Source: Rotaria socialis (lineage: Eukaryota). From it: a stretch of DNA of 64,000 bases. Position 1 is the first letter of the stretch. The number at the start of each line of letters is the position of its first letter. The notes below the pieces were generated by a model, which saw only the letters and a program-made list of their open reading frames with translations, had not been told where the DNA came from and ran no database searches. The stretch spans positions 62,001 through 126,000 of the forward strand of contig CAJNYD010000459.1 in NCBI GenBank assembly GCA_905331295.1, given 5' to 3'. Positions 23,367-60,485 of this stretch are shown piece by piece. Both the position numbers and the translations under genes were made by a program.

Positions 23367-26300
23367 CTACATGAATTCACTTGCAATGATCGTGTTAACT
23401 TGTTGCATCACTTCGTTCAAGAGTGATGATGTATCACTTTTATTTAATTTGACTCGTTTAACAAGGTTCTCTTTCTTATCTCTTTTATAGATCGCTTCAA
23501 TGTTTTGTAGCATCGTTTGAACATATGTAGTGAAATCAGATAACAGTAGAAATATCCCACGATCTTTGATTTGATTAATAAGATTTTCCATCAGTGGCAC
23601 ATCTGGTAAACCACCAAGATAGCTATCCCAACCTGATCCTTGGTCATGACAAAACGGTGTGTGACCAGGCGCATCACCAACCCAAACTAGTATCTGTGCT
23701 GCTCGTGAACTACCATCTTTTGTCCAGCTTAATTTCAAAGCTTTCTCTAGCCCACCTTGAACATCTTCACACATATCGTCACCACCGTCCGCTTCTTGAC
23801 TAGCAATTTTAGCTTCAACTGGTGCAATATTAGGCGCTTGATGAAAATCAATTAAATCGAAACGATTTGAATCAGTATAGTCACGATAGGCAACAAATGC
23901 CATTCGTAGAACACTATTTTTGTCAAATTTTTCTTGCATATCCTTCTGTATTCCATCGCCGATCGCCTTAATATATTTTTTACAAGCTTCAATCCAACTT
24001 CCCATGGAGCCGGTACAATCCAGTACAAAACATATTTCAACGGTTAGTGGTGTATTATGCGCATTGCTGGAAAATGTTAAATCGATAGTACGTTTCGTAC
24101 TTTGTGTGACAGCATCAAAGTGTGTTTTCATTTCTTCGTTCCATACTTGGTCTGTCGATGAATAGGCCTTATTATCATCTCCAATGAACGTCGATGTTTT
24201 ATCTACATGATAAAGTGGATCATTCGGTGTTCGTCCATCGCTTAGTTCATTTGACCAATTAATCAATGCATCACAAACTAGACGTGGATTTTGTGCAACA
24301 ATCCAATCATTGAATGACAAGCAAACACCATTCGATTCAAGTCCAAGTCCAATTCCGATGACAGTAATCGAACGCTGCTCTGCATGAGCAATGATACGCT
24401 GCATGAAACTGCCACGTTTATCATAACCATCAGTCAATACGAAAATAAACATCGGACCATGATTATTGTTGTGTGCTGATTGTTGTTGTAGTAATTCTGA
24501 AGCTGCAAAGATAGCGTCACTTAACAATGTTGTTTCACCATCGATTTTCAATGCATTCAATAAATGGTGTAAAAATAAACGATCATAGCTTTGCTTGTAA
24601 CTCTTCACTAGCTCTATACACTTTCCGAACGTTAAAACACTAAAATCTTCGATACCTGTTTTGTTTAATGCCGCACAAATGGAAAGTAATATGTCGACAG
24701 ATGAAAAGTACGTTGGTCCAGTCATTGATACTGATTGATCGAGAAGAATGGCAATACGATATTCTGGTTTTTGTGAACCAATTTGATTTAAATAGATTCG
24801 ATTGTATTGTCCTTGTGTACAAATAAATTTAACAATACCTGGTATAAATAATCGATTGCCTTTCGTATCTGGTAGAGCTTGTGTAGGCTTATAAGCTGGA
24901 AGAACATTGTCTTCCATGGTTCGTACTAGTTCACCAATATATGTTTCTAGGTGTTGTTCAATTTGTTGTAAGCGTTTATCTGTATCACTAAGAATTGTAT
25001 CATGTAGTTCCAAATTCGAATAACTTTTCTCTAGTGCATCCATTGTTTTATCTAAATTTTCTATGAATTCATTGGAAGCACTTGAGAAATCAATATTCAT
25101 TTGTTGTTGGAATGCTTGCTGTTCAAGTTTTTGTCTGGAATCGCTGACATAGAATTGACCGGCAAGAGCAATATCTGGATGTGTCCATAAATCAACATTT
25201 CTTGCATCCGATAAAGTGAAGGCACTTAATTGTTGAAATTTAATTGCATTCGCTGTCGATGTTTTAGTTTCAGGTGTAGCTGAATTGTTTGTATGTACTA
25301 AAATTGATTGTTCGATGATAGTGATAAGATCACCGACAACTGTTTTTGTTAAAGTATCAAGTTGCCCAATTTCAATTAACTGATTTCGTTCAGGAGCGAC
25401 ACGTTGTATGAATTCTTTTGCTTTTTTCTCATGTTCAACAGCGAAATTCCTATAATCATCGGAGAATCTGCTATCGCCGGACTTCGGTAATTCAGGTATA
25501 ATGCAAACCATATAAAGATCAGCATGTGCCTTTTGTAATTGTGTTGTGAATAAGTCAACTTCTGTTTGAGCTGAGATACCATCAGTAATCATGATAATAA
25601 AACGTTTGACATTCGGTTTTATTGTATTACCGAAAAGTTCTTTATTTTCAGCGATTTGCTTTAAAGCTGTTGCAGGCAATGTTTTCTCATCGGTCGTAAA
25701 GGACTCGAGAATGTATTGTCCTCGTGCCACTTGTTTTTGTTGAAGACTAAGTGATTCACTGGTGGCGGTAGTAGTAGTAGTAGTGATTGGACTCGTTCCT
25801 GATTTAACAGTGTCATGCATTGATTCATGCCCTAGAGATTTAAGGATTTTTTGTTCGGCGCCAAATCGAAGAACGGCAAATTTCCATTCCAGACGACGAA
25901 ATGTCTCCATAAGAATGACTAATGTAGTCAGTGCTTCTCGGATTTTTTTCCCACTCATGCTTCCACTATTATCAACGCAAAATACAAACTCAAATTGTAG
26001 ATCGTCCTGTTCTGTTTGTTGTTTACTATACTGTTTTGTTAATGCTGAACGTAAACGCGTCAATAGCATACCTTGAATATTTCGTGTAAGTCGGGCTAAT
26101 AGAGCATATCGAGGCTTATCTAATTTAGTATTGGGTAAATCCTCAGGATCACAACTTTCACTAATCTTTCCGATATCGCACTTGTTGACCGATTGTAAAA
26201 GATTTGCGTACATGTTGTTTGAGCGTTCTTTCAATTTATCTAGGTCATTTTTACTGATTTTTACCGTTTTACTTTCATCTTTCGATTTTGAATCGGTTGT

Positions 26301-29300
26301 TCCTGTATTTGAACCAATATTATTTCCAATTTGAACACGAACGACCCCAGCTTCTTTGATGTCTACTTTCGGTGAAACGTTTTCTGCGTCAGAATTTTCC
26401 ACTCTCCCATCATCATCTATTACTAGAGAGACATCACGATTCGCGGCTGTTGAGCCTTCTTTTGCTAATGCTTGCTCATCAGTGTCAGATTTCTCAGGAT
26501 CTTCGCTACCATCATCCAATGCAGAATTCAACTCGCTCTCATGATTCGATAGAATATTATTCAATTGAATGCCTAGCTTGTGTAATATTGGATTGCCGAT
26601 TATTTCACCTTGCTCAAATTTTGAATCTTCAAATCCTTGTAAAAGTTGTTTCACGTTCTCAAGATTTGTTCTTTGCTGCTGACCTTGCATATGATCAGGC
26701 AGATCAGAAATATTTCCATCTTCAGGTATGTCGTAGTCATCAGCCAAATCGCTCTTCTTATTTAATTTACACATTTTTCGCAACGAATCTGAGCCACTAA
26801 GTTTATCTAAAACTTGAATTAAGTCCTTCCTTATTTCTTGACATTTCTGTTTTATATGACCATTAATATCGCCTGAACATTTATCAATCTCCTCCAATGA
26901 TTGATACAATTGTAGGGATATTTCGATAACTTGGCATAACGTTGTTTGGGCTAAGCTATCAATTTCTTTTTTCATATTATTCGCTACCATCTGTTGTAAA
27001 GTGTTCATAGCTGCTTGAATTTTATTGCTGATCGCAGTTGCTGTTGCTAAACATGTTATTGTTTCTGTCAATACTAATTCATCTTCCTTAGCTATACTGG
27101 ATACTTGCTGCTCTGACTTTTTACTCAACTCGGCAGCTTCCGTTGCCAGCTTCTTTATTTCAGCTACTGCTTCTTCTTTAACTTCCTCACTTGGTTCACT
27201 CATTAAGAGAGGACTCGTTGGTTCACCAGAGTGATAATCAGTGAATTTTGTGTCGCCTGGTATTTTTCCACGCCTGTTCGCTAATGGATTCTCGCTGGTG
27301 GTGCGATCAGAAATAGTCTTCTTTGTTGTTGAACCTTCACTAGGTCTGCCTGATGATGCAGCTGCCATTGACGACAGCACTTCACTACCATCGCTTGTAC
27401 TGCTTACGTGGCTATCTGCTTCTTTAGTAGCACCACTTGGCGTCCCACTGCCTGTACTACCACTACTGCTAACACTTGCTTTGTCACTGAGTCCAGTACC
27501 ATTACTGGCACCGCTGGGGTGGCTCTTAGCTTCATCACTGGAACCAATCGGTTTAGCCCTATATTCACTACCGATATCTGTACTACTACTTGCACTGCCG
27601 GTTCCACCAGTACGTGCACTGCCAGTTCCACCAGTACTTACACTACCAGTTCCACCAGTACTACCAGTTCCACCAGTACTTGCACTACCAGTTCCACCAG
27701 TACTTGCACTGCCAGTTCCACCAGTACTTGAACTGTCAGATCCACCGCCATCGCCACTGCCACCGCCGAACAATCCACTGAATGCACCGCAGAGGGAGAG
27801 AGCTAAGCCTATGGCGGCTAGCACGAGACCTACTGGATTGGTAGCCATCAGAAGTGTAACTATGCCACCTATGATTGCAGAAGCATGTTTAACTGACTCT
27901 GGTATACCAGGTATAATTTCTGTGAGTATGGACATTGCAGCTGTTGCAATGGAACCTATTTGAGCTACTTTTGCAGATATTGTAGTTGCTTTAGATAGGG
28001 CCGAAACGCATTCAGTTATTTTTTGAACATTTCTGTATACAGTTCTGCCTTTCTCTAGTGCATTAACTACATCTTTATCTACACCAGCTGCAGTGAGTAG
28101 ATCGGTAGCTAGCTGAAGATAGTTATCACCCGAAAGAGGCTTTCCAGACGTTAACGCTTTCACCAATGGTTTGCTTGCGGCCAGTATTTGTTGCCCTTTA
28201 CCACCGATCATGGAACCAGCAGCATCTATCATATCTTCGTAGCTAATCGATTGCTTGTTGAGCCTTTTCTGCAGTAATGGCATAACTGATTGAACGAACG
28301 GACGAACCTCGTCTGGAAGAATAGTACTGATGGCATTCAACGAATGATCAAGTATTTTTTGTGGATTTTTCGATTGAATAGCATCCATTATATCCACAAC
28401 AGCATGAACTTGTTCTGCATATTCTGGGGGTAAAAATGATGCTCCCATATTCAATGCACACTTGGCTATATCTTCAGTTGCCATAGCTTTGTGCTTGACA
28501 ATTGTTTGTAGCTCTTGAGCCATAGTATAAACACTCTTTAATTCTGGTGGTAAATATGACTTTAAATTGTCGTCATTCATTAGACTATTGAACAATTGTA
28601 GCGGATCATTTGTTTTCGAGAGAACTTTAGCAGCTGACTTTGCTATAGCCATAGCTATATCGATTTTGTTTGCATGCTCTGGAAAATATTCATTTGTTAT
28701 CGAATGAACTACTGCTTGAAGATCATTATTTTGTATCTGATTCACGACATTTTGTGCAACAATCAATGATTTCGCCGTTTTCTCATCGACGATACCTATG
28801 GCTGCATCAAAAGCACAACCTAGTAGATTCTCTTTCGTTATTGGTTGTTTCATCAGTTGAGTTAACGATGACATGACCTTTTGAGCTTGTTCTGGCACAT
28901 GTGGAATAAGCGTGAGAGCATCTTTGATTGCGTCAATTTCCTGATGATTTGTCAATTTTTCATAGATATTGCCAGCAGTTCGCAACATGACAGATGTTTT
29001 CTTGGGTGCAAGAACTGAAGCTAAGTCAAACGTTGTGTGGATTATATGTTTTAATTCGCACGTTTCTAACCGACTGAACTGTTCCATGTTTTCAAAAACT
29101 GTTTGAACTTCTTTATTGGGCATTAGTTGTGATAAATATTTCAATGATTGTAGTTTGTCTGTTGACAATAAATTCAATGCATTCAACGATACTTGTAGGA
29201 CATTTCCTGTTTCCGCTCCGTATAATTCAGTTATGGTATTGACGACTTTATTTTGTACTGCATCTGAAGAAGTCAATTGTTTTACACCTTCGTTAAATCC

Positions 29301-32300
29301 CAATCGAAGATTTTCTGGAAGTAAAACTGAAATTGATTTCAGTGCTTGAATTGGTTCTTCTATTCCTCTATCGAGTATTCTTCCTAGACTGATCTCTGAC
29401 GAGTCTATAGAGATGATTCCGTGTGCTAATTCAAGAATTTTTTGTTTCACATCACCAACAATTATTTCTGGAGTAGATCCTAAGATAGCTTTAGCTTGAT
29501 TAGAAATTTGTTCATCAGGTATGAGATGAAGAACTTCATCAATGACGATCATCGTCGGATTCTTGTTGTTACTCAAACTGTCCAATGCATTTGAAATTGG
29601 TTTGAGAAATTGTTTCATATGCTCATCAGGAATACACTCAATCGTTTGATCGATAAAATTCGAAATATTTGCTTGTGTAAATTCTCCATTCATAGCTGGC
29701 ATCAAATTTTTATAGGATTCCAATAATGTGTTAAGATGTTCGATTGGTTTCAATCCAATATCGCTATCGTTCAGTTGACTTGCTAGTTTAATACCCTGTT
29801 CCAATACTTCTAATTGTGTCATAGTCGTTGATGTCACATGCGAAATGACTCTTATTAATTCATCGTTAACTTTTTGTTCTTTATCGATTGGATTCATTAA
29901 ATCGCAAATATCAGAAATGGTTTGCATTAAAGGAATTATTCTCTTGTTCTGAATACTATCTACTATGCTTACTAAATGATTATTGAGTTTTCTATGATCT
30001 GGTAATTTCAATTCGTCGATAAAAGATTCTTTGGCTGTTTTAACAAAACTCGTAATCGAATCTGGTGTTATTGGTCCTGATTGGAATCCTGCAAAATGCT
30101 TCTGTAATATTTCCATCCAAGCGATTTGTTTTGATTTCAATTGACGGCAGTTACATGTTAATGATAGAACTGATTCCAAAAGATTGAATGAATCTTTGGG
30201 TTCCATTAGTTTTTTCAAATCACAAGATAATAATCGGCAACGATCATTTCCAAAATTTAACATCGAAGAAACAATATTCGTAGAAATTTGATTATCACAA
30301 GCCGATGTCTGGTCCGATAGTAGCGTAATTGTGAGCACTGTTCGCAGCGAGTCAATAGTCGTTTGATCAATATGAGCTTGCAATATTGTACATATATCGT
30401 CAATAAACATTTTCCAGTCTCGACCTGCTTTGTCTGCTCGTCTAATTCCATCTGTCAAATTCGAAATGATACTTTGTAAACCTTGAAGAGTGTTCTTCTC
30501 GGTTGAACTCAAACCGGGTGATAGCGAAGCAAGAATACCCGGGAAGGCGGATACATCGTTTAATGATGGCTCAAACTCTTCATTCGAAATCCGTTCGCTT
30601 AATTTCATGAATTCGACGATATTTTTTGATTCATTTTTATCGTCTAATTGTTCTTGAACGTAATCGAAAACAGTAGAAACAGATAGCGTATTGTCCGATG
30701 TAGCTATCGCCTGTGTAACAAGTTGACATTCAGTCAGCGGTATATTCGACTCAAACATTTTTTGTAAAATGACTTGTTCATTGATCGATTCACCATTCGA
30801 TGATAATTCTAATAGTCGATCGAGAAATTTCAGTGGATCGCGGTTCGTTTCAGTTGTCATTTCTGAGATAAGCGTACTTAATGCCTTTTCTGGATTTTTC
30901 GTTTTCTCCACTGTTTCAACTGTACTAACAACTTTTTCCATCAAATTCCTCAATTGCTGCTTATCACTGTTCGATAGTTTTTGAGCTTCCTCTTGATTCA
31001 TCACTAAATCACTTGCATAATCAAGTAAGCGTTTGTTTGCCAAGTGTTCTTTACTAGGATCCTTATGATTATTCTTTTCATATTCAATCAAACGTGCCAA
31101 TATTTGTTCGTGTTCAGTTTTTCCATGTTGTTCGAAAAGAATCGATAGTTTTTCAGCGCAATTAACTGCTAACGATAGATTTTCGGTTTGTGTCATTCCT
31201 TCTACGCCTATAATAGCCTGTGGCAAATGCCCATTCAAAATTGCGTCCATTTTTTCATACATAAGTCTCCACTCTACTGTTGTTAGTTTGCCAAATGTAT
31301 ATTGGATCTTTTCGTGGATATTATTTGTATATGTTGCTACTTGGTGACTATCAGACTCAATAGCCGACACTATCAGATCACATGTCAAATCTTCAGGGGT
31401 ATCTGAACGTTTTGGATCTGAATGTACTAACCCATCGATTAGAATTATGACTGGAGCAATCGCTGTAGCTGCACGTTGACGATATAGATTTGTGGTGTCT
31501 TCGAGTAATTGCATCAATCGTTTTTCGATTTCGGATTGAGATAAATGTTTCAATGGCGATGGGAGATCAATTGGCTTTATCTTATCTGTCGATTTATCTT
31601 TAGGTTCAATGCGTCCGGTAATGATTAATTTATATTTTTTGATTGTTTTTTCTGAAGATCGAGCAACTAAACGTTGATCGATTTTGAAATTACCGATTGG
31701 TGCAGTTTTTTTTATTTCAACGTTACATGCAATTTTTTTCGGATGAAGGGGAGATATTATGAAGTTTTTTTCATTATTCGCAAATTTGAAACTGAATATA
31801 GAATTCTCTTCTGTTTCGTATTCTAACTTTGCAGATACATTTCCATCGTTTTTAACCGTAATTGAAAACGGTAGAACTTTTGATTCTGGTGCTCGTGTGC
31901 CACAATGAAGAATATTTTGATCGAATGAAATGATTGCAGCCATTCGTTTACAATGGAATGGAATACGATGTATTGGCTCTTTACAATTAGTTTTCAGAAC
32001 AAATTCACAATCGAACGAGGCTGATTTCTTTTGAACTGTATATATATAATGGCATTCAATGGTTTGTTGAGGTAAGATGATAAATGGAAGTAGGACATGA
32101 TTATTGATGGTAACGTGTGTCGATGTTGTATGTATATCATCAATTAGCATTTTTACTGGACCTTTGTTTTGCAGAATGAGTTGACCTGCGGTTTCGTTAG
32201 CTTCTTCAGAAACTTGAAGTTTCGTCAGAGAACCAAAGTGAAATTTATCAAATTCAGGCCAGCCAGATGTTGTCTTGAGTATTAATTTAAATGACGGACG

Positions 32301-35300
32301 TTGACTTGCATTTGGAAAAAGAAAATCAATTAGATTGTCAATAATTCGGTGTGCATCTTTGATTTGTAACTCAATTTTCAATATTAACGATGCACCTGGT
32401 TCGATGAGAACTTGTCCGTGAGATAGTCTAGTAACAACAAGTTTAGAAGAATTTTCGGGCTTTGATTCCACGACCATTTTTACTTCGCCCGTATTGCGTA
32501 CTGTAAGTTCTTCGTATAGAGTGGTACCAGGAATACATGATTCTAAGTCAATAGAAAATTTTCTTTCTGTTAAAGGTATTGATCTATAAATGAGATCAAA
32601 GGAAATTCTTCGCGATTTTCCTAAACAAATAATTCGAACTTTGAAGTCTTTACTAAAATAAATTTCATAGACGCATTTAGCATCTTGAACTATATCTTGT
32701 ATGCACCAATCAATATTCAATATTTTGGATTCGTAGGCAAGTAAAATAAATGTTGAATATTTACTATCGATCTCAAATTTCCCAATAGCACCACCTTCTC
32801 GACGTATTTTAACCCGGAGATCGAGTGCTGTTGGGTTTTGAAGAGTAAACGCACGTTTTTCATATTTACCAGAACAGGTAAGTGCTAGACCAAAATCAAT
32901 TAAGTACGTTTTTAATTGATTCAATGATTGATCATCAACTGCTACTTCAAATAATGGTAGATCGATGTCAATTGAAAATGATTTTATTTCGCAACATAGA
33001 ATAACAGAAATGATCAATCGATCATTTCCTAGCTTCAATTGCCAACGTTCTTGATATTTGCCTTCAATACATTGACTATTTGGTGTGATTTTGATAGTAC
33101 TTGAATCATGTGGATCAACAACAGATGATGAGGAACGAATAACGAATGCTGATTGAGTATGCTTATCTGAATTCGATGACATCTCAAAATTAATTTCATC
33201 ATCACTATTATTTACAATTTGAATCGATTTTGTATGTAATTGTGCATAGGACCAATTCTGAATGATTTGTCCTAGTTGTATAACTATTGATGAATGAGAT
33301 CCGAAATAATCACCGTTCTGTTTGTTGATCGTTATTTTACTAGTAGATGGTGAGCCAGTTGATTTCATCAATGTTGTAACATTGACCTTTTTACTTATCT
33401 CATTTATATTATTTAGACGTGGTGGCTGTGTAATAGAACGCATTTGTTTTTTTCGTTCATGAATTAGTACTAATGTTTCATCGATAATCACTTGAAACGT
33501 AGTTAATTGTTTTTCATTCATCAATGTTTGTTGTTGTTTTCGAATTAAATGATTCTTTATTGTGTCAAGTAAAGAAATCGCTTTTTCACAATGTTCTTTT
33601 GTTTCGAGTGGATGAACAATCAATTGAATTAGATTTAATTCAATGCAAATTAGAATATGATAGATTTCTAAACCAAAATTAAGTTCACGTTGAGCCAGTG
33701 CACTTCCATCACGAAGTAATAGACGCATTCGAATTGTATTGATTTTGTTTATACTTTCTTTTGATACAATTTCGTCGTTCTTACTCAACTCTACGAGAAC
33801 ACCGCTTCGCTGAAAAGTTTCCAATGATTTATCGAGAGCCTGTCGAAATTCTATATTCGATTGTAGGTCTTTTTCTATGGCAAGCGATGCGTCATGTAAT
33901 TTCGATAGGGTGGTTGCTAATTTTTCGAAATGAAATGTTTCTTTGAATATTTGTAATTCTCGTTTTAAAGTATCAGCTGAATCAAATCCCAGAAAAATGC
34001 CATGTTGTATTCGATTAAGCTCATTTTCATCAACCATTGCATTTAATGTATTTACTGTGCGTACTATTGTTCTTTCTAAATATTCGTATTTCAATGTCAG
34101 TTGAGTCATAAGCAAATGGTGCGTTGGCGGAGATGAAATCTTTAATAATTGCATATCTTTTTCCAGTGCAATGGTAGGCATTGTGGCTATACTTTCTTGT
34201 TTAGGTATACTGTAATAGCTTGGCGATCTTGGCATTTCACAATCGGATACCTTTGTTTTTTCAATGTTTTTGCACAGACGATTGAGGTCCTCTATCCAAT
34301 TTTTAAGCTGCTTCTTTCTGTCTTTAGCATTTAATTCCCGATATTTTTCAAGTAAGTCAAAATATGCATGATCCACTAAAGTATCGGCTAACGTAATAGA
34401 TTCATCCGTTGTTATTGGATCTGCCGTTGATTCATCTAATGTCGAAGTAATAGACTCATCTTTTTTTACCGTACCCTCTTGAATTACGATATCACAGAGT
34501 TGTATCGACGTATTAGGAGTAATACGTATCTTAATCGTATTATCCTTGTATTTCCCGAACTTATAGTATACATCGATATCTTCTAATGAGCAAATATCAA
34601 CGTCTTGGAGCTGAATAATACCCATTTCTGTCCAACTGCCTGTGTCTCCATTGCCAGCCAGAATTTTTAAGTACCAAGTCTTTTTACAATGTATTGGGTC
34701 CAATATTATGTCTGTAAATATATCTTCTACATAATTTGAAATTACCAAAGATTTTAATGGTTTTATTGCGCTTTCGGATATGAGCGTGTCGGGCTCCTTT
34801 GTAAAGAGTTGAATTTTATTATCCCACATATTGCGCCGTGGTTGCTTATGTTCGGGTTTCTCATATAAATATTCGACACATTTGATTTCGATCCGCACAG
34901 AATCGATATTTATCATGTTCATTAACTCTTTTCCTTCCTTTTCTCGATCCAGTTGGCAAGGCACTGGAACTTTTTGCTGAGCTTTCATTAGCAGCCGGAC
35001 AAGTTTTACACAATCATTTGTTAAAATATCCTCGTCTATTATATCGAAATGGTTCGATTTAAATTTTGCTGTTTGCAAAAGTTTACCAATAAGTTTAATA
35101 TCATGCAATATTTTTATTGAATCTGATTTGGTTTTTTCAATTGTTTTACATACTCGATCACGATTTAAATCATATTCCTGCTTTAAGCGTTCGTTTTTTT
35201 GTCTAATGTGTTGAGTTTTACTATCAAATTCATCATTCATACGTTGTACCCATCGTTCTCGAATTCGTTTTCTCTGTTGAAGCAATGCATCGATTTCTTT

Positions 35301-44300: not shown

Positions 44301-47300
44301 TAAATTTGATAGTTTTTCAATATCTCGAAGATTAAAATCGTACGGTCCGCCAAGACGACCAATCTGTCGAAGTCGTGCCTTTTCGCTTATTTCAAAATGA
44401 AACATATTTATCTTCTCAACGAGTTTCTCAGTTAGATAGCCTGCATCAAGATGAGGACGCAACAATGAAATGGTGATGTGCATTAATTCATGAACTTCGA
44501 ATGATGCCAATTGAACTTGAATAAAATGTGTTTGAGTTGAACGAGGCAATTTCTCTCGGCCACCACCAATCGAAGCTGGATTCATAGCAGCAACAATAAT
44601 TGAACCATCGATTTGAATCGATTTTGCTAGTGCAGGTATAAACAATTCTTTTTCGTTGCCAAATAATGGTGACAATTGATTTAATAACTCTTTACGTGCT
44701 AAATTTAATTCATCGAATAAAATGACCGTATTTTGACGATCTTCATTCAGTGAAATGTACAACGGTCCTTCTTGAAATTCAAATGATCTTTGTCCACCAA
44801 CAACCCGCGGTACGAACGACCCGATAAGATCTTCAAATGTAGTATTACTACTAAAATTGATACGAACAACATTGTATCCTAACATTTTCGCTAGAACTTC
44901 AATGATTTTTGTTTTACCAACACCTGGCGGACCGGCTAATAATTGTCGATTGGATGAATGTAATGAAAACATGATTCGTGATATATTATTAAAGACAGAT
45001 TTTGTTAGAGCAAGAGGAAATTTAAGTTTGTCAGGTTTAGTTTTTACTTGTGGTGCAAATGGTGCTATCAAACCATTCGATAGAAGACGTAAACCCCAAT
45101 GTTTTCGTAGTTGTTTCGTCTCTTTATCAAATATCATCATATCTTCTACTGCACACCATTCATCAAGTCGTGTATAAACACCTGCTTCTTCGAGTTTTTT
45201 ATCAGTCGTAATACAATCATTGGTGCAATTAAATTCTTTCAGTACATTTTGCCAGACTACATCTGCTGTTTGTAAATTCGAGATAGACGATTTTTTGACT
45301 TCATTGACACCGTCAAGAAATAGAAATTTAACGCAAAGTGCAGCTGCTTGTTCGATAGGCATATGTTCAAGATGTAATTGCAAACATTCACCAAAACGAA
45401 CAAAATGACGGGAATCCAATGAATCGATTTTCATTGCTTGAGCCAATGTTGGAGCAAGTTTATTAGCTAGAATATCGACCATTTTATTCATTTCTAATTG
45501 AATATGTTCATTTTTGACATGATCTAATCGCGATTTTGTTGCTAACTGTTGTAATTCATTGTTGTCATAAGGTAGAACACGTATTTCTGTCATTCTTGAT
45601 CGTGTTGCTGCGCTCAATTGCAAACGATTTTCTGTTTTCTCATCTGTGTGTACAGTTGCAAATACTTGAAATGTCGATAGAATCGGAATTTTAGCACGTT
45701 GTGGATTAATACCGGTTTTTGCTGTTGTTTCTTGAGCAGTAAAGTCTTCGTAGAGAATAAATGATGGTTCAGTTTCAAATAGACTGTTGAGACGTTCAAT
45801 AACAGCCTGCGACGGTTCATTGATATCTTCTAAGATTAAAACTTTACCTTCTTTTACAGCGGTAGTAACTGGACCATCTTGAAATAGAAAGATGTTCGAT
45901 TTTCCTTGTTCGATGGCTCGTCGAATTTCTGCAATGATACTTTCACAACGAGCTTTTATTAGTAGAACACCATTCTCATTCGATGCAAGTTTACATATAT
46001 AATCGAGACGTTCGCAAATAGTTTCAAGTTTAAGACCAACAACTTCGAATGCTTGAGGAACTAGATTGGCACCTTGCTCATCTGAGAATGCGATTGAAGC
46101 AGAAGACGTTGTCATTTGTTGAAAATCATGCTGTGTAGCATCATGAAATGCCAGAAGATTTTGCTCTTCAGTGAGTTCGACTGGTTGTATCATTGCAAAT
46201 GGATCGATATCTTCTTGTCCTTGTGTTCCCAATGGCATGCTCGCAGTATTTTCATAATTAGTTGAGACATTACTATTTTGTATCATGCTGAAAGGATCGA
46301 TTTCTTCTTGTTGATTGTTGACCATTGCAAACGGATCGATCTCTTCTCGTTTATCGATAAACGCTGCAAATGGATCAATTTCTTCTTCTTCTTTATGCGT
46401 ATCGTTCGACATAATATCTATAAGTTGTCCAGAACTGCAAACAGCTTCAAAATCATCATCATCATCATCATTATAGATTATGGATGTGCTCTTTGACATG
46501 GCTGACGGTGATTGTGCTCGCGGAACTGAAACTGTCGATGGTATATATACATACTCTTTCATCTGATCTTCAGTATTTTCATTCAATTGTGTTTCGTTCT
46601 CGCCGTTCTCTAGATATTCGCTTGTATGTGCTATTTTTGTTCGATGTTTTCTCGGCGTTCGTTTTTGTTGTTCTTTTATTTTTCGTACAAATGTATCGAT
46701 ATCTTGAGCTAAGCTATTGATACTTCGTCGGAAATCATTAAAGTCATCGTGTTGACTTGAAGTAATTGTTTCCGAGAAACTCTTTTCTATACGTGTACAC
46801 AGTTGATTTAAACAGTTAAACAATAGATTTAATGCATCAGCATGTGTGTAGGGTCTTGAAAAACAAACAATTTTATGAATATGAAAAGAGAGCTGATCTC
46901 GATAGAACTCACCTGATCGAACCAATCAGATCATTTGTTTCTGTTGATGTTGAACATGTAATTGTGCAAATGTCAGATTCTTTTCCCATTAATTTCGACC
47001 ATAGTTTGATCAAATATGATTTATAACAAGTTGGACCAAGTAGAAGAACTGGTTCATGTTGATCTGTAGCTGCAAATATTCGCCAAAGTGAAAGAAGTAA
47101 ATTTTGTGGTGCCGAAGACAATTGCAGAGTTTTAACTGCATCGATATCGACAAAAGAATAGGATATAGGCAAACGAGGTGCACAATGAAGATCAATATGA
47201 TCAGGTTCAATTTTGATTTTAAACGAAGGATCGATGAGTTCTGGAAACGCTTCCTTGTGCTGGAGACATTTGATGAATTCAGAATAGAATTTTTTCGGTA

Positions 47301-50300
47301 CACGCGATTCTAACAGTCGTAGCGCGTGTTCTTCCCAACTGACATCAGATTTTCGTTGTTTTCGATTAATCCATTTGATAACTTCTCGCATTGTTAAGCC
47401 GAGTTTTGCTGCACCAAATATCGGTCGTTGCGAGTCTTCAACATGACGATTCAGAATAGTCACAGACGATGCTATAAGTGGTGCAAAAATTTTTAAATCA
47501 TTATTGAATGCTTCCGATGCTGTCGAAACAGTTGATGTCGATTTTCGCTGTATAATAATAAATTCGAGTTCTTTTTCAGAGAACGAATGAAATTGAATTT
47601 CTAAAAATCGTGAGCGTAACGTTTTCGGTAATTGTTTTCGTCCAACATAGCTTGTACCGTTTTGTGTTGCAAAAAATCTAAATCCATCACGTGCAACTAA
47701 TGTTTGCCCAGTATTGGGAACAGTTAGTTGCTGTTGACCTTCTAAAATCGGATAGAGAACATTCATAACAGCCGGCTCGGCCAAATCGAATTCATCGGCA
47801 ACAAACCAATTTCCATCTAACATCGCACGTGATAGAGCTCCATTAAGAAATTCACCATTGGGCATATATGAACCAAAATAATCTTGAATCGTAGTTCCTT
47901 TCGTGTTATTGACACGATAGAGAACTTTTCCATTACATTGTGCAATATATTCAATTAAACTTGTTTTACCAGTGGCAGCAGGACCTTCGAGAAGAACCGG
48001 CCGCGCACAAATGATGGATGCACACAGACGTTTCGCTGCTTCGTATCGTGTTGGTGTCGATTCAGAATCAATGATATGTTCGCGATGCTTGTTACGTTCT
48101 TCAATTGGAGCTGATAGATCGAAGAAATTTATTGGTTTGTTTCTGGCTTGTTTTTGTAAATATATTTTAATATTTTCATTTTCGCTTGATGATGTTAAAT
48201 CAATATTGAATACTAGTTCATAGGCTGACAGTAAAACTGAAGATAGATCTAAGTTAAGTCTCTCTGTTGCTTTCGAATGCTGTAATTTGAATGCACAATC
48301 GACGAATTGAACTAATTGTCTTGTTGTTAATTTTTGAGATTGAATTTCCGCGCAAAGCTTATTTATGATGAGTTGCTCATCGATCGGAAAATAAGAAGTA
48401 AACACATTCTTGTAGACATCTAAGGACGATAAGTTTAAACCTTGATAATGAATAATCAAGAATCGATTATATAATGCAGGCGTGAGTTCATGATTTGTTT
48501 CAATCGATGCATTTTGTAGTCGTCCAGTGGGCGGTGACATCGTAGCAATGATACGGAAATTCGGCGACACAGAAACTGGCTCTGTTTCATTATTTTCTAC
48601 TTTTACCCATTGAACTGGCTGTTCAAGAACCGGATTAAGACGTTCGAGAACAGCTGATGATGCTTCAGAAAAGTTTTCAAGAATGAGCCAATGACCTTTC
48701 GCGATGGCTTCACTGACAGCACCATCATGCCATTGTGGCAGTTTTGGATGTGGAACAAGAGAGCCGACAAGTGCTGCTGGTTCCGTTTGCGGAGTTAAAT
48801 ATAAATGTTGGCAATGAACATTAGTCAACGTGGCTATGGCTTGAACAAGATGGCTTTTACCGCAACCTTCAGAACCAACGATTAGAATAGGTTGTGATGG
48901 AGATGATGATAAAATAAATTGTGCGATACGATTTGTCTCATCATCGATATAAAATGATGAGCGAGCCGATGAAAGGGATGCAGCAGCTTCAATTAAAGTC
49001 TCTAAAGGTTCCCGAAACTCCGTTCCAATATATTTAATAATGCTCTCTCGTTGATTTCTATCTCGACATAAGTTTGCATAGGTTTCAACGAGCAGTTCAG
49101 GTAGTGTACTCATATCAGATCCATATCGTCGTTCTAGTACTGATCTGAACAATTCATACGAACAATCGTAAATTTGTGTTATCGGTCCATCATGCAATCG
49201 TTTAAAAATAGCACTATGAATTTTAACGATTTTTTCAATTTCTTGAGTACTCGTTGGCTTTAATATGTGCGATGGCCAATCGTTGAGAACACGTTCGAGT
49301 GTAATCATTGGCATTTGTAATAATAAACGCTTTTGTGAAAGAAATGAAATTGAATTAGCGCTTCGAAAATCTACTACTAATTTTGATGTCGACAGAGGAT
49401 TGATTTGAAATAATTTTTCAATTGACGAAGCAATTTGAATTTGACATTGTCGTTCACGAAATCTTAGACCATAGGTGGCAAAAGCTTGCTCACTGATTAT
49501 TTGACCGAATGTATTTGCGTCAAGACTTTTGACTGATTGCGAAACATTGTTCAACATCTTTTCATAATCACATAAACTTTGACACCATCGAAAAAGTTCT
49601 CGAATTGTTATTTCTGTATAGCTTTTATTTCGTTCCTTGAATTCATTGTCTTTAATGAGATTCATGATAGTTAAATGTAATTTGACCATTTGTGTGGCTT
49701 GTGTAACAAATGGAAATTTTTCGTTTTCTAATCGATTAGCGACAATGCTAGCTAACTCTTCAGTTTGTGGTCCTTCAACAATAAAAATACTGAAACGACT
49801 AAGTAAAGCAGTTGATTGAGCATCACGTGCTCCTTTATATTGGCCAGTTGATGGATTTTGTGTTGCAAAAAGACGAAATTCTGGATGCACTTGATAGACA
49901 CGATAATTTTGTTTGGTTTGATTTTGCTGTTCATTCGTATTTGCATTATCGTCATCTTCGATATTAGGTAATATTAAAACACCTGATTCTAATGCTTGTT
50001 CAATAGCTTGAAGAACATTTGGCGGTGCTAAATTCATTTCATCTAATAAAAGCCAATGGCCATGGCGATATGCAGTTGTGAATGGGCCTTCTTCGTAGTC
50101 CAATTCGATGTCTTGTTGTGTTTTATTAGTATTGGTGACTGTTTTTAATTTAACCGATCCAAATAGCCCACCAATATCAGTTTTTGATGATAGATTAAAA
50201 CGAATCAACGGTTTTTTAAGATCGGCAGCAACATCAAGAATCAAACTACTCTTTCCGACACCAGTTTCTCCTTGTAATAATAAATGAATTGGTGTTCGTA

Positions 50301-53300
50301 TACATTCAATGATTCGTTTACGATTGTTCAACATTGTTTTGGTTTGTACTAGCGACGGTAATGTTCGACGATTAGGTATCAAATGACGAAATTCTTCAGG
50401 ACATGGCCTAATCAAATGTTTTATACCATCTAAACTATTCGAATCTGTTGATGAGCTATCTTCCATCAGAGTTGTTTTCTCTAGATCAGCAGCCAATGCT
50501 TGAAAATCGGATCTTTTTATAAGACGAAATGGTATTTGAGATTTTGAACGTTTCAATTCACGTTCTAAAAGATACATCGACATTGATTGATTTTGCGCTA
50601 ACATTGGTTGTTGATCATGATTTGTATCCAACGATGGTATGGATGATGTTGTTTTCGTAGTGAAATCTTCGTCATTCTGATCTTTCAAACTAGCTAGTAG
50701 TTTCATAAGATCATCGAATTGAATATTCAATGCACGACCAACTAAACGGGCAGTTGACACTCGTACATTTGAATTTTTATGTAAGAGGCCCTGAAGAAAC
50801 ATCGACAATGATTGTTGAATGAACGATGAGAGGAAACTAAATGATGGCATTGAAATCAGATGTACAACTTGATCGAGTTTTTCTCGTAATAATTCAATAA
50901 GATCATGAATATAAATGTCAAAATATTCGAGCGTAGTTGATGGTCGAAGATAAAATGAAAAGTGTGCTTCATTCGATGGAATATAATCAAGTTTTTCTTG
51001 TTCATTTAAATTCTCATTGGTAAATGCCGCCATTATTAATAGATTATTGAGCCATGAATGAATGAGTGCTGGTTGTTTTAATTGAAGAATAAAATTGAAT
51101 AATCGTAACATTTGTTTATATTCAATTGAGAGTAGTACTGTTGATTCGACAATACGCTTCAAATCAACGGCATCAATGATCGAAGTCCTTGTTGCTGTTT
51201 GATTGATCAAATGAAGAATAACCGAAATGGTACATGAAAAAAGACGATGACGAAATGAGGAATTCCATGCTGGTTGATCATTATTATTGGTAGAAAATAT
51301 ACGATCAAGTAAATTACCTATCGTTTTAATGGTACTAGTGAAATCAATATTTTTTAAGCGTAGTTTATGTTGCGATTGTGAATCAAACGCTTTTTCTAGT
51401 AATATGAGAAGTTCTAATACTAATGTTGGATTATCAATTTGATGAGCTTGTATTAACGAGAGAAGAAGATTGAAACTTGTAGATATTTGCCATTGATCAA
51501 AAGCGTATTGACGACATTTTTTCAATAATTCAACAAAATCAATGTGTGCTCGTTGTGCATCAATATTTTCGAGTATAACTTTAATCCAATCTTTTTTCAC
51601 ATGCTTAATGATGAATTTCAATCCTGGAAATGAATTTCGTAGTGTTGAATGCATCAATTGAACGAATAGTGATGTTTGAATTTGTTGACTAAATTCAATG
51701 AAATTTTTATTCGTAATTGTCTGTGATAATTTTAATCGATCGAAATTATGATTGAGAATGTCGACAAAGAATTGGAACCATAATTGATAACGATCGACTG
51801 CTTTTGATACTTCACTTAATTTCATAGCTAACATTGTTAAAAGTAAACAAAGATCATCGATCGGCCAATCCAATAATGGATTCAAGCATGCAGTTAATAG
51901 AATTTCGTCAATATACGAGGTTTCATTTGTAATCATCTTTTGTAATATATTCCTAATAATTGAACATGATATCAGTGGTGGCAAGCTGACATGATTCGAT
52001 TGAGGTAAATCTTGAACAAAGCTAATAAATAATTGTGCACCCATATGTCGTACTTGTTCATCATTGTTAAATAGAAAAAAAAGGAGAAAATCTGTCAGAT
52101 TCATCTCTGCTAACTGATAGTTTGATTCTGTCGTTTCTAAAGTTTTTGTAAATAATTGATGAATCTTTTGTAATAATAATATCCAGCGTACTACAGCATC
52201 GACATCATCATGATTTTGTTGCTGAACGTGTGCATACTTCAATATTTCAGAAAAGGGCGGTAGAAAGGATGGTCGCTCATGAATTTTACTACTATGATAC
52301 ATGAATTCTCTACCATCAGTCCATTTGACTTTACAATCAGCTAGAATGACTTTGGCTTCATTATTGTTCGAACTAGGCATGTAGTGCAATTGATTTAACA
52401 TTTGACTTTTAATGGATGTTAACTGTGATTTTGCTGATAAATTTGTGACATCTACTAATTGTACTTCAAGTATCCGTTGGCGTTGTATGGCAAAAGAAAG
52501 CATCAATGATAGACAATGATCGGCATTTGCAAATGCTTTTAAAATAAATTCTAAATGAAGTAGTAGATTTAAAATATCCTGTAGAAGAGCGAGTTCATCC
52601 GCATTTGTACGTTGCGATTGTCTTGCTTTTTCAATGAAAGAAACGTACTGTTCAGTGATATCCAAAGGAAACGTATTATCATCAGATAACGCATTACATA
52701 GCTGCGAGCCAGGTGCAAATGGAAATGGTTTTCCAGATTGGTAAGAATACGTATTCGTTAATGAACTTTGACCAATTTGCTTACCAAGCCAAGCATTCTT
52801 AGACCATTTGTCAATACTCATAATTGTGGATTCTGGTGGATAAAGCTTTGAACGCGAAATAATAACGGCGATCGAGAATAGATAGTTTTCATTGTTTGAT
52901 ACGGATTGATGGGATATAACTAGATAGAACAATTGAAAGAAAGGCAACGAAAATATGTTGTGCGTCGAATAGAACCGATAACAGGGAACTATCAATGTAT
53001 CAGTGACTAATGAGACGAGAGCTGCATCATCACCGGCTACGCCACTGTGTTGAACTTTATCTTTTAGGTACTTGAATGCTTTGATTAAACATTCAATTTC
53101 AGCTTCATTATCACTTGTCGTTGTCGATGCCGTTGGCGTTGACGACGTTGATGAAGCTGTCAGCGAAAAATTTCGAAGAAGTTCAAGTGCCTTTAATAAA
53201 GGCGATGGATTTACATCGGTCAGTAATTTAACAAAGGAATATGAAAGCTCTCGAACTGGAAAATCTGCATTAGGAGAGCTACCGCTTTTAGCCTGTGACA

Positions 53301-53301
53301 T
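23367..53301 (-). CDS. Giant midasin/Rea1-like AAA+ ATPase with tandem Ig-like domains, hydrophobic hairpin and three vWA domains (~9,676 aa); exons 53301-46913, 46854-43583, 42736-23367
   Basis: Three long ORFs join via phase-compatible GT-AG introns (DLIGSIR|PYT; QWEH|EKNDL) to give 29,031 nt. Six Walker A/B pairs: GETGVGKS/LLLDE, GSEGCGKS/LILEN, GPAATGKT/FVADE, GPTCYKS/LILED, GPPGVGKT/ILFDE, GGDCSGKT/ILLDN, with midasin-type DLIGS, EGP/DGP and ERLNSL motifs. MIDAS motifs DNSGS, DQSVS and DCTGS. Confidence 0.9.
27592..27730 (-). repeat. Coding minisatellite, ~24-bp unit, encoding (STGGTGSA)n
   Basis: Six gttccaccagta cores in tandem on the + strand; one unit is shortened. Confidence 0.9.
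42737..43582 (-). other. Intron 2 of the giant AAA+ gene (846 bp, phase 1)
   Basis: Donor G|GTTAGT. A pyrimidine tract precedes acceptor TTATAG|AA. Splicing restores the frame inside AAA module 6. Confidence 0.75.
43287..43455. mobile_element. Short MITE inside intron 2
   Basis: TIR core TGTGCAGTGTCGGTG / CACCGACACTGCACA. TSD-like TCCATAT on both sides. Internal CACTG/CACCG repeats. Confidence 0.65.
46855..46912 (-). other. Intron 1 of the giant AAA+ gene (58 bp, phase 2)
   Basis: Donor AG|GTGAGT and acceptor TTTTTCAAG|A. Splicing yields the midasin-like DLIGSIRP motif. Confidence 0.9.
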
Positions 53302-53507
53302 GTGTACAATATCAAAGAATCATGTATTAAAATACGTATTGAATATTTATATCTACAAAAAAAACGATCGTTTTAGTAAAATTTTGAACATGACAACAGT
53401 CTAAATTTTGCAAAAAACCTGCGATGCACCATTGAAGCGCGTGAATAGAAAAAATTGTTCAATTTCACTTCTACCATATGCAAGTGTAGCGTCGAATGTG
53501 GATTCTT

Positions 53508-54424
53508 CCCTAGTCAAACCTTTTTATTCATGCGCTTGCTAAGACTTGAGCTCAATATGTGTTCATAGTGCATGACTTTCTTGCTCAAGACAAGCGCTTG
53601 AATGCTTGCATAAGTTACAAAACAAGCTTGTTAGCGCAGCTCCTACGGAGCTGAAATGTGGAACTCATGTATGCCTTTAGCTTTGTTACCTGACGCATCA
53701 TCTGTATGCTGAAAGACTTCTCGTCAACCATAGTTATTTTCCTTGAGGATCGATGAAAAGAGCGGAAATTTATTATTTATTTGTATATTAAAAAAATATA
53801 TTAAAAAATAAAATATTGTTTTTTCATTTAAGCACGCTTGATTTCATTTATAATTATTGCTATATACTCGATAACAATCTTTCTTTTTTTGCTTTCTAAT
53901 TTGAAATTATTTTTCTCCAATATCGACTATTTGATGAATACGGTTGTTGCAGTCTGTAATGGGTGTGAGTGTGGGTAGTTATATGGTCACCGCATCCACA
54001 CCAGAGCCTGGGCAAGTACAAGTACAGCAAGTACAAGTGAAAATACTTGTTACTTACTGTGCCAATATTGATGACACGCTTCGATGATTCTCCTTCCTTC
54101 TCTTTCTGTTCTCTTTCCATTGTTCTAATGNAACCTCGAACTTAAAACTTACACTCACTATTTTCTTCGAAAATATATGTGAGTGCCACAAAATGCAACT
54201 ATAAATTTTTATTACAAGTTGAGTTATTTTGAACGTAAAATTGAAATAGTTCTTTAATAACAGAAACGCTTCGATAAAATCTCAAGTGCATGAGCAAGAA
54301 GTATAAGAACTTGAGCTCACCGAAAGGCCTCATGTCTTCCCTCAAGATGTGTCCATAGTTCTTGACTTTCTTGATCAAGAAAGTCAAGAATTGCATGCGC
54401 TTGCAAAAAGCAGTTCGACTAGGG
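53508..54424. mobile_element. Non-autonomous TIR element with CCC...GGG termini (CMC/EnSpm-like)
   Basis: CCCTAGTCAAAC / GTTCGACTAGGG, with a possible 2-bp TSD TT and CTTGA/TCAAG subterminal repeats. It spans the N join at 54131, so contiguity is uncertain. Confidence 0.55.
53960..54130 (-). repeat. Near-identical inverted copy of 55336-55506
   Basis: About 170 bp, essentially identical (one visible mismatch), and ending exactly at the N at 54131. Confidence 0.85.
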
Positions 54425-54818
54425 TTACTAATATAACTCTATCATTGAAACAGTCTCATTTAGGATTCAAAAATTTTCAAGGCGAGGTTCCAATAGTACT
54501 GTCTTTAAAATGAATAGAGAAATATCAAGTATTTTTCTTCTAAGTATTGATCCGACCTCCATGAGATACCTAGTTCGAATTCGAATATAAATGGATACCC
54601 AACTGCATGGTGCCAATTCGAAAATAAGTGATAAAAGTAGATTTAGTTTTAGATTTAGTTTAAGATGGAGTGGGTGTGGGTTGCTGGAGGTTAAGGGATA
54701 ACTGTGGGTGGCGGTGCGAGTGAGGGGGTGGGCAGGAAAGATACCCGAGGGACTTCAAATTTTGGTGTGGGTAGTGGATACCCTGGATGTGTGCTCCAAT
54801 GCGGATGTGGGTGTGGAT

Positions 54819-60334: not shown

Positions 60335-60485
60335 TGCTCAGCACGGTGAATGTATCTGAAATATATGTTTTTTTTTGTGTAAGACCGCACACAGGGGTGG
60401 ATCAATGAAGAAAGGATATATCCTGCAATTCTTGGTTTTTTCCTTCCTCTCACTTTCGATGAACAAACAGAAAATGAATATATAT

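Follow-up and report, generated by a model that had tools for sequence, protein, structure and literature searches.

A predicted giant six-module AAA protein of Rotaria socialis from an apparently undescribed sister family of midasin

The window analysed here is a stretch of 64,000 nucleotides of the Rotaria socialis contig CAJNYD010000459.1 (positions 62,001 to 126,000). Three long open reading frames of its minus strand are predicted to form one gene for a midasin-like protein of 9,676 residues, the joins being supported by homologues. The protein appears to be a member of an eukaryote-wide sister family of midasin which, apparently, has not been described. Judged from these comparisons, the whole reading, a single three-exon gene of this family whose product likely acts as an ATP-driven remodeller of complexes outside the nucleus, is rather probable.

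Gene structure and AAA ring

The three reading frames lie at 46909-53319, 43578-46925 and 23367-42779. The first-pass annotation had proposed that they are spliced through two GT-AG introns into about 9,676 codons, with a terminal exon of 19.4 kb devoid of stop codons. Joining 53301-46913, 46854-43583 and 42736-23367 confirmed both points, since the resulting 9,676-residue frame has a single, terminal stop and none inside. The gene is divided as follows.

46913..53301, minus strand: exon 1, coding (aa 1-2130); from the N-terminal region through AAA1-AAA3 to the Walker A half of AAA4
46855..46912, minus strand: intron 1, 58 nt, GT-AG; separates Walker A from Walker B of AAA4
43583..46854, minus strand: exon 2 (aa 2130-3221); rest of AAA4 with its acidic insert and Walker B, then AAA5 and the first (Walker A) half of AAA6
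42737..43582, minus strand: intron 2, 846 nt, GT-AG; within AAA6, with a short repeated element near 43320-43410
23367..42736, minus strand: exon 3, 19,370 nt with the stop (aa 3221-9676)

The splice pairs were chosen among 18 (intron 1) and 16 (intron 2) in-phase candidate pairs and their phase matches; retained-intron alternatives were rejected at both junctions. The three frames are assigned to one gene because both introns cut an AAA module between its Walker A and its Walker B, because the Rotaria gene model P0307 carries the identical two joins, residue for residue, and because eight other single chains link a part of the ring (AAA5/6) to vWA domains, two to four in number, and carry an Ig array. 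Furthermore, the starts of the P0002 and P0004 reading frames fit the chosen acceptors, and P0004 reads through the site of intron 2 with an in-frame insert of 18 residues. For exon 3, the chance of 6,455 stop-free codons at the local base composition is about 1e-215. The region from 22.5 to 42 kb was covered in 30/30 bins by contigs from two other DNA runs, with no indel among the variants listed; none of the 40 exon 3 variants listed (of 135) creates a stop and 17 are synonymous. That the frames are separate genes, or that the locus is misassembled or decaying, is thus considered extremely unlikely. Such a reading can draw on the fact that the joins are supported by homologues and not by transcripts, on the contigs of run X2, which end at the repeat within intron 2 (read depth 218 versus about 45), and on several database models (P0001-P0003, P0307) that are broken up or leave out exons. 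It has to face the interrupted AAA modules, the P0307 and P0004 models, the exon 3 variants and the intronless rings which occur elsewhere in the family. The gene was not found in the expression tables searched (one file of PMC10809525, 12 of the 16 files of PMC11258130 and also its file 13, part of one file of PMC12220480). One run presumed to be RNA aligned to repeats alone, which is no guide to expression.

The N-terminal part of the protein and its ring comprise the following segments.

50362..53301, minus strand: N-terminal region of about 980 aa; probably helical, without a Pfam family; its start is not hydrophobic in the manner of a signal peptide
49402..50349, minus strand: AAA1; Walker A and Walker B (DE) complete, predicted active
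48142..48939, minus strand: AAA2; Walker B without catalytic Glu, midasin H2 plug absent
47212..48039, minus strand: AAA3; Walker A and B complete, predicted active
45144..47079, minus strand: AAA4, interrupted by intron 1; Walker A degenerate, Walker B reading 'ED'; about 310 aa of acidic insert carrying short EEIDPF-type repeats
44094..45011, minus strand: AAA5; Walker A and B complete, predicted active; own arginine finger lost
41958..43961, minus strand: AAA6, spanning intron 2; Walker B 'DN' like midasin, predicted inactive

The six tandem AAA+ modules noticed at first pass are present as six Walker A/B pairs, but only three of these are catalytically complete. They are dynein-related modules on one chain, collinear with the order found in midasin, and AAA1, AAA3 and AAA5 are predicted to be active and the other three inactive. 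The same alternation is observed in the family, in which the Walker B glutamate is found in AAA1 (7/7), AAA3 (10/10) and AAA5 (17/17) and in no AAA2 (0/9), AAA4 (0/13) or AAA6 (0/18), whereas in 20/20 MDN1 sequences it is present in AAA2 to AAA5 and absent from AAA1 and AAA6. The MDN1 pattern is that reported for S. pombe midasin, which has a catalytic Walker B in AAA2-AAA5 and none in AAA1 or AAA6, and the AAA2 and AAA4 sites of Mdn1 are essential (PMC6920918). With the direction of the arginine fingers (which site a finger serves) taken from the same work, the fingers serving the live sites are kept in AAA2 (10/10), AAA4 (13/13) and AAA6 (18/18), and that of AAA5, whose partner would be the dead AAA4 site, is missing from 18/18 family members. 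The spacing of the motifs differs as well: Walker A and B of AAA2 are 61 residues apart, against 149-181 in 20/20 MDN1, and the AAA2 plug is missing in the 5/5 family rings measured; in AAA4 the spacing is 334-482 residues in the family versus 65-136 in MDN1. The N-terminal region gave no significant match to the N-termini of six other family members.

Arm, Ig array and vWA head

Exon 3 continues the chain beyond the ring with the following segments.

33363..41957, minus strand: arm of about 2,860 aa; probably helical, without a Pfam family, diverging fast
31578..33350, minus strand: ASH/Hydin/PapD-type Ig array of about five domains; Pfam PF22544, PF15780; Atlas 0.96
27978..31565, minus strand: helical stretch, about 1,200 aa; last 516 aa modelled all-helical (pLDDT 72.8, pTM 0.31)
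27768..27965, minus strand: hydrophobic helices (aa 8145-8210) closing the helical stretch; may be a membrane-inserting hairpin
27228..27776, minus strand: Gly/Ser/Thr-rich low-complexity tether; 24-bp tandem repeat at 27587-27746
26028..27227, minus strand: mildly acidic tether; D+E at most 23% per 150 aa
25293..26000, minus strand: vWA1; DxSxS MIDAS motif (aa 8809)
24768..24995, minus strand: segment between vWA1 and vWA2, adjoining vWA2
24198..24767, minus strand: vWA2; DxSxS MIDAS motif (aa 9220), counterpart of the midasin MIDAS domain
23370..24050, minus strand: vWA3; DxTGS motif (aa 9460), Pfam VWA_4-like

Comparison of the arm with the midasin linker revealed no significant similarity and no HMM hit in either direction, one weak motif match being returned by hhalign (probability 2.6%). 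Arms of distant family members are not significantly similar to each other either, and among 13 arm-segment profiles only one, that of the hairpin, found relatives outside rotifers. Between rotifer homologues the ring and the vWA domains are mostly 55-91% identical, parts of the arm down to 29-50%.

The Ig-like array announced by the first-pass annotation is real and of the ASH/Hydin type. It passes the Pfam cut-offs for ASH (PF22544, 38.1 bits for a cut-off of 25.5) and for the HYDIN/VesB Ig (PF15780, 28.5 for 27), matches OCRL-like ASH and MSP as well, and contains an N-x-G/S-type motif repeated five times at a spacing of about 110-125 aa. With an iterated profile, the array was detected in 26/26 sequences having at least 2,000 residues before vWA1, and independent Pfam matches to ASH/Hydin (E<0.01) were obtained in 7/13 sequences scanned. 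A model of the array folded without alignment was not usable (pLDDT 33). ASH domains target the centrosome and cilia, and ASH/PapD-type domains also occur in trafficking proteins (PMC4094338). Ig domains of this type are a better pointer to cilia, the centrosome or trafficking than to immunity.

The hydrophobic hairpin, also predicted at first pass, corresponds to a single genuine peak of hydrophobicity (Kyte-Doolittle 2.19 at aa 8189), but it is not a trait of the family: a peak of at least 1.9 located 250-950 residues upstream of vWA1 is found in 10/43 sequences and is absent from the close rotifer-clade homologues P0004 and P0146. On this count a family-wide membrane anchor was rejected. 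The succession of hairpin and Gly-rich tether is conserved in P0187, one distant protein of very different composition. In fold comparisons of the region, Foldseek gave no match at E<=0.001 and the best Z score (9.0, VIA) concerned generic helices; Atlas and Pfam leads were all sub-threshold, the RTX lead (0.79) being below the useful range. The helices may simply cap the helical stretch. In the mildly acidic tether, D+E reaches at most 23% per 150 aa, against 51% in the single MDN1 measured.

Three MIDAS motifs had been announced; two are of the DxSxS form and the third is a DxTGS variant. With an MDN1 MIDAS profile, vWA2 outscores vWA1 in 16/16 family proteins, and vWA2 of the R. socialis protein together with its element II loop matches the MDN1 profile with an E value of 4e-12. 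A fourth motif was detected in 39/89 top clusters. The basic PY-type nuclear signal of the MIDAS loop is present in 106/111 MDN1 and a PY in 0/106 family loops; many of the latter are rich in basic residues and could still act as nuclear signals.

Relationship to midasin and other AAA systems

Midasins (Rea1/Mdn1/MDN1; PDB 6or5, 6hyp, 5jcs, 6qt8) are the closest PDB matches of both the ring and the vWA tail. They take part in ribosome building, binding the UBL domains of Rsa4/Ytm1 and remodelling pre-60S particles. They share with the R. socialis protein six AAA modules in the same order, a long arm, a flexible tether and a MIDAS domain with its element II loop. The latter protein is, however, about twice as long, its live sites are AAA1/3/5 instead of AAA2-5, the AAA2 plug is absent, the AAA4 insert is larger, the D/E tail appears weak, an ASH-Ig array is present, and there are three vWA domains (three or four in the family) in place of the single terminal MIDAS of midasin. 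Its ring is 22-24% identical to those of 20 MDN1, versus 29-33% to those of distant family members. The PY signal is missing, and several paralogues are present per species.

The vWA tail matches 89 clusters (50% identity) at E<=1e-30; among the carriers, those known by name include a sponge, a monogonont rotifer, green algae, a cryptophyte, a rhizarian and an alveolate. To our knowledge, all of these have ciliated or flagellated stages. No named match from a model ciliated organism was present among 29 proteins identified by name, which do not constitute a census, and the distribution is patchy. The layout of ring, ASH-Ig array and three or four vWA domains recurs in algae, a rhizarian and other records, arguing for an old sister family. 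In this respect the earlier idea of a midasin paralogue holds, as far as a relative distinct from MDN1 and lacking ribosome-specific elements is meant; a recent, one-off neofunctionalisation is not what the distribution shows. R. socialis itself has members in both vWA subfamilies, a second, diverged copy was found in a sequencing run from the same organism, and two further rings come from Rotaria sp. Silwood1. A canonical rotifer MDN1 was not seen among the 120 of 388 matches listed. Scanning metagenomes with the vWA tail yielded no loci, and scanning viruses with the ring yielded one, a single-module match at 25%.

In a tree of AAA5+6, 15 family rows were separated from 18 MDN1 rows at 100/100, and forcing the clade of the R. 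socialis protein together with the sole animal MDN1 was rejected (p-AU 3e-9); the MDN1 set is nearly all fungal, with one named animal sequence. Orthology to MDN1 was rejected on the grounds of this separation, of the dead AAA2 and AAA4 sites and of the missing AAA2 plug and PY signal. In a tree of individual modules, family and MDN1 sequences group together for AAA3 (92/88) and AAA5 (82/88), and odd and even modules are split at 98/95, the live family sites alternating along that split. A shared six-module ancestor is only moderately supported, since the tree does not place AAA1, 2, 4 and 6.

Other systems show partial likeness. The MoxR-vWA pairs (NorQ-NorD, CbbQ-CbbO, RavA-ViaA, CobS-CobT) belong to the same AAA clade and have a vWA with a finger; theirs enters the ring pore (PMC13036017), and a corresponding finger is predicted from the sequence of the R. 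socialis protein. These pairs are single-module homohexamers with a separate vWA protein, in contrast to six unequal modules and three vWA domains on one chain. Bacterial single-chain midasin-like giants (P0076, L010) also fuse several AAA_5 modules. The pre-vWA loop is shared by P0076, which however has one vWA only, HEAT repeats and no ASH match among the 25 of 55 families listed, and which does not align collinearly with the R. socialis ring. Tandem PapD-like ASH-type Ig domains are shared with Hydin, CFAP65, CFAP74, CEP192, TRAPPC8-13 and OCRL; their combination with a midasin or a MIDAS head was not found in the literature searched. RNF213 (mysterin) is likewise a giant chain; it fuses six AAA modules, not all of them active. 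Compared with its general description, the R. socialis protein has no RING motif, a midasin-type ring and a chain ending in vWA domains. No RING pattern and, in Pfam scans, no E3 family was detected in it, whereas RING-like motifs lie between Ig array and vWA1 in three relatives (P0156, P0244, P0167). A published description of the family was not found in the literature searched, most subscription papers lying outside that search. One bdelloid giant, g37061 of Rotaria magnacalcarata, is reported as 'midasin-similar' (7,479 residues, about 1,000 of which align to midasins at about 25% identity); in the accessible text it appears only as an LTR insertion target, with no architecture or family given (PMC7943196). 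Its length is near that of exons 2+3 and, going by this description rather than by its sequence, we would guess that it is a member.

Proposed mechanism and biological meaning

By homology to Rea1 and NorQ-NorD, we infer that a client would be held by its acidic residues, bound via Mg2+ at the MIDAS sites, and that the loop of vWA2 would reach into the pore of the ring, as described for vWA fingers or loops (PMC6624252, PMC13036017). ATP hydrolysis at the three alternating sites would then pull or twist the vWA head so that the client is stripped. The place of midasin's AAA2 plug as a gate may be taken by the acidic insert of AAA4, and the ASH array would tether the machine at its place of work, for which the ciliary, basal-body or centrosomal apparatus is our single best, and tentative, guess. 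In some members a hydrophobic hairpin may add a membrane anchor; its topology would keep ring and vWA head on one side of the membrane.

The same ring-MIDAS mechanics could instead serve cell-autonomous defence, in which arm and vWA head would recognise an invader or its vacuole and the effector would be the hairpin or else a RING finger, as in RNF213. The support is circumstantial: the RING-like motifs of three relatives, the paralogues of R. socialis and Silwood1, the variable arm, the patchy distribution and the participation of prokaryotic MoxR-vWA systems in conflicts (PMC7159879). The protein studied here nevertheless has no RING motif, its hairpin matches no specific pore-forming fold, the order of domains is constant across kingdoms instead of being shuffled and the Ig domains are of the ASH type; this reading is rather unlikely. 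The OCRL-like ASH and MSP matches and the hairpin and tether kept in P0187 would also be compatible with a remodeller that is anchored in a membrane and serves trafficking or the biogenesis of organelles (Golgi, endosome, extrusome), in which ASH domains work as in TRAPP or OCRL. Such a role is quite improbable given the rarity of the hydrophobic peak, its loss from close homologues and the possibility that the helices are a mere cap. As for a divergent ribosome-assembly factor, be it the MDN1 of this organism or an additional remodeller of pre-60S particles, midasins are indeed the best PDB matches of ring and tail; the sites essential in Mdn1 are dead, plug and PY signal are missing, the tree splits the protein from MDN1 and species have several copies, which makes this very unlikely.

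The chances are about even that, besides midasin, early eukaryotes possessed a sister machine of the same type, since lost from the usual models. It would have been a chain of about 1 MDa with three alternating firing sites, a cilium-type ASH arm, a three- or four-fold MIDAS head stripping cytoplasmic clients and a variable slot for RING ligases or a membrane hairpin. The family may have been overlooked because its genes are so long that databases mostly store fragments. The eukaryotic AAA rings with six modules in one chain that PMC3495828 and PMC5100056 discuss are those of dynein and midasin. Their history would gain a branch if midasin has a conserved sister family that is present in animals, green algae, cryptophytes, rhizarians and alveolates. 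The live sites of this family, alternating along the odd/even split, would provide a test case for the firing of such rings and for their origin from a two-module unit, and in this family the ring-plus-MIDAS device is likely used away from ribosomes, fused to ASH domains.

Gene model and surroundings

Three long ORFs lie on the minus strand of the window. All in-phase GT/GC-AG pairs near each junction were considered, and the following introns were retained:

46912-46855, minus strand: intron 1, 58 nt, chosen among 18 in-phase candidate pairs
43582-42737, minus strand: intron 2, 846 nt, chosen among 16 in-phase candidate pairs

With both removed, the frame stays open for 9,676 residues (the query). 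Intron 1 splits AAA4 (Walker A at aa 2089, Walker B at aa 2473) and intron 2 splits AAA6 (aa 3124 and aa 3303, respectively). Both joins were matched residue for residue in the homologue P0307, an NCBI predicted model from Rotaria sp. Silwood2; as the Silwood2 models were built with RNA-seq of a related species (PMC7943196, excerpt), this match counts as prediction only. In the homologue P0004, a single ORF runs through exons 2 and 3, and 18 extra residues sit precisely at junction 2, which is what an in-frame short intron would give. The terminal exon measures 19,370 nt, a stop-free run expected by chance at about 1e-215. Contigs from two other DNA runs covered 22.5-42 kb with no indel listed, and contigs of run X2 covered the remainder of the gene, with gaps at the repeat within intron 2 and near 49.6-49.9 kb. 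The intron positions, the P0307 joins and the P0004 ORF agree with the first-pass annotation, in which the three ORFs were spliced into one frame: the giant gene is real and is predicted to be a single three-exon gene. Rotaria and Adineta supply the nearest proteins (74-79% for the vWA tail), and the window therefore very likely belongs to a bdelloid rotifer. A second copy, about 80% alike, is present in a sequencing run from this organism. The P0307 model skips from the start of the arm directly to vWA1, probably through a mis-predicted long intron, and gene finders seem to be defeated by giant exons.

A 1.55-kb element (53960-55506), bounded by a 171-bp inverted pair (99.4% alike), lies about 660 bp ahead of the start codon. 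Owing to this pair and to the very high read depth over the element, it is likely a non-autonomous DNA transposon. Further features noted in the window are:

789-2993, plus strand: ORF with an ADP-ribosyltransferase-like domain, then TPR repeats (126-bp periodicity)
5292-6845, minus strand: carboxylesterase ORF
13373-14182, plus strand: GPR1/FUN34/YaaH-family ORF
15725-16696, plus strand: rhodopsin-type GPCR ORF
59816-60337, minus strand: 173-codon ORF with a cysteine motif
58168-59131, 60416-60978 and 61404-61716: further inverted repeats
8191-8378, paired with 63214-63402: 190-bp dispersed repeat

The carboxylesterase, GPR1/FUN34/YaaH-family and GPCR ORFs show no obvious connection with the giant gene. 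The inverted and dispersed repeats are likely small mobile elements. The 173-codon ORF had no Pfam or NCBIfam match; its cysteine motif is one which we take to recall papain-like peptidases.

The AAA ring and its relation to midasin

The query ring aligned module by module with canonical midasin (MDN1). In an unrooted AAA5+AAA6 tree, with mostly fungal MDN1 rows and one near-duplicate row left out, 15 rows of the family (the query and its relatives) and 18 MDN1 rows fell into separate groups with 100/100 support. Placing Tigriopus MDN1 in one clade with the query and two rotifer-type homologues was rejected in the same analysis (p-AU 3e-9). The query does not qualify as an MDN1. In the single-module tree, odd and even modules parted at 98/95; the family and MDN1 came together for AAA3 (92/88) and AAA5 (82/88) but without supported grouping for AAA1, 2, 4 and 6, so that a common six-module ancestor is likely rather than firm.

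All six tandem AAA modules annotated at first are there, but Walker B is glutamate-complete in AAA1, AAA3 and AAA5 only. Among family rows having the module concerned, this glutamate was present in AAA1 (7/7), AAA3 (10/10) and AAA5 (17/17) and in none for AAA2 (0/9), AAA4 (0/13) and AAA6 (0/18). In contrast, MDN1 has it in AAA2-5 only (20/20), and the AAA2-5 sites of S. pombe Mdn1 are required for growth (PMC6920918, excerpt). Walker A of the family AAA4 is also broken, and the arginine finger with which AAA5 would complete that site has gone from all 18 rows (18/18), whereas each of the three live sites keeps its finger. Such concerted loss speaks for an arrangement of three alternating sites that has been maintained. 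The family lacks the AAA2 insert, the pore plug of Rea1 (61-74 residues versus 149-181 in MDN1), whereas the AAA4 insert is far larger (334-482 versus 65-136). Within the latter (window ~46130-46440), four short acidic EEIDPF-type repeats, partly retained in P0307, are candidate linear motifs or pore-gating peptides.

C-terminal part and spread of the family

With the MDN1 MIDAS profile, vWA2 was the top-scoring vWA in every family protein compared (16/16); in most of them the match reached into the upstream loop. The best PDB match of the family profile was midasin, over the same stretch. The Rea1 loop bears a PY nuclear signal and occupies the ring pore (PMC6624252, excerpt), and its NorD counterpart, a finger that inserts into the pore of NorQ, is required for remodelling (PMC13036017, excerpt). 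A basic-PY pattern was found in 106 of 111 MDN1 loops versus PY in none of 106 family loops. No other part of the vWA tail is as well conserved as this loop, yet it lacks PY, which suggests that pore docking was retained without that nuclear signal. We infer that the family works in the cytoplasm, and go no further because many family loops are still basic. At window 23745-23795, a variant cluster in one low-depth (4.1) run X7 contig alters several vWA3-loop residues near the metal site, and run X4 contigs also break up there; this is possibly allelic variation at a ligand-binding face, possibly error.

Of 48 long sequences, 27 showed the Ig array with an iterated profile, which members join by construction; these include all 26 with at least 2,000 residues ahead of vWA1, and the 21 sequences with no match are fragments starting later or ending earlier. 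Pfam, as an independent check of 13 members, gave ASH or Hydin-type matches (E<0.01) in 7. The query exceeded both Pfam cut-offs, in agreement with the Ig-like array proposed for it. The centrosome and cilia are targets of ASH domains (PMC4094338).

The query has one strong hydrophobic peak (2.19 at aa 8189), a putative hairpin, but this is not family-wide: a peak of at least 1.9 occurred at a similar position in 10 of 43 sequences and was missing in P0004 and the homologue P0146. The region was modelled all-helical (pLDDT 72.8, pTM 0.31), with no specific fold match found. A hairpin of clear homology, with a Gly-rich tether after it, was seen in the rotifer clade and one distant protein, P0187; in three relatives this stretch contains a RING-like motif. 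Judged from these comparisons, the position is a variable slot and no family hallmark.

Among 1.84 billion cluster representatives, 89 matched the vWA tail at E<=1e-30; the loop was found in 78 of these, vWA1, loop and vWA3 in that order in 58, and a fourth vWA motif in 39. Eight chains (5,553-7,408 aa) link at least AAA5/6 with the vWA tail, and the metagenome loci L001, L002/3 and L006/7 encode the whole ring as a single ORF (>5,300 codons). The 29 proteins looked up by name included green algae (Bryopsis, Mesostigma viride), protists (Chlorarachnion reptans, Rhodomonas salina, Amoebophrya) and animals (the sponge Corticium candelabrum, Brachionus calyciflorus, bdelloids). The vWA tree contained two subfamilies, with one Rotaria socialis member in each, and the query grouped with the sponge protein (SH-aLRT 96). 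The architecture thus recurs well beyond rotifers: the distinctness from MDN1 of the midasin paralog first proposed stands, and the query is, by these matches, a family member and not an oddity.

At L006 and L007 (3161-7439), an intronless family gene lies head to head with tightly packed kinase, ankyrin and NHL-repeat ORFs. L010 (6167-24208; also L011 and L012) holds a bacterial-looking multi-AAA giant, a 6,014-codon ORF adjoining a purine-synthesis GARS gene, and P0076, a bacterial-looking HEAT, multi-AAA and vWA protein, has the same pre-vWA loop as the family.

No account of a midasin sister family or of this architecture was found in the titles and abstract openings searched. Excerpts of PMC7943196 refer briefly to a Rotaria gene of 7,479 residues with weak similarity to midasin. 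No such family appeared around the search terms in PMC3495828, PMC7159879, PMC5100056, PMC11573180, PMC6431247, PMC6927961 and preprint 10.1101/2025.10.20.683490, nor any trace of the gene in the portions searched of the supplements to PMC10809525, PMC11258130 and PMC12220480. The family is apparently an undescribed, widespread sister group of midasin.

Predicted mechanism and place of work

The MIDAS sites would bind a client via metal, the vWA2 loop would dock in the ring pore, ATP would be hydrolysed at AAA1/3/5 and the client would be removed, a combination that we consider probable. The place of work is a weaker matter. A ciliary or centrosomal site is our tentative first choice, because of the targets of ASH domains and because all named carriers, to our knowledge, have ciliated or flagellated stages; against it, no model ciliated organism was among the few named matches, and nothing relevant on midasin in ciliary proteomes was found in the literature searched. 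A role in defence, to which the RING insertions of relatives, the paralogues and the fast-changing arm would point, is rather unlikely and comes after the ciliary or centrosomal site; trafficking is improbable, and ribosome assembly very improbable indeed. Wherever it acts, the giant protein would work like midasin and the MoxR-vWA pairs.
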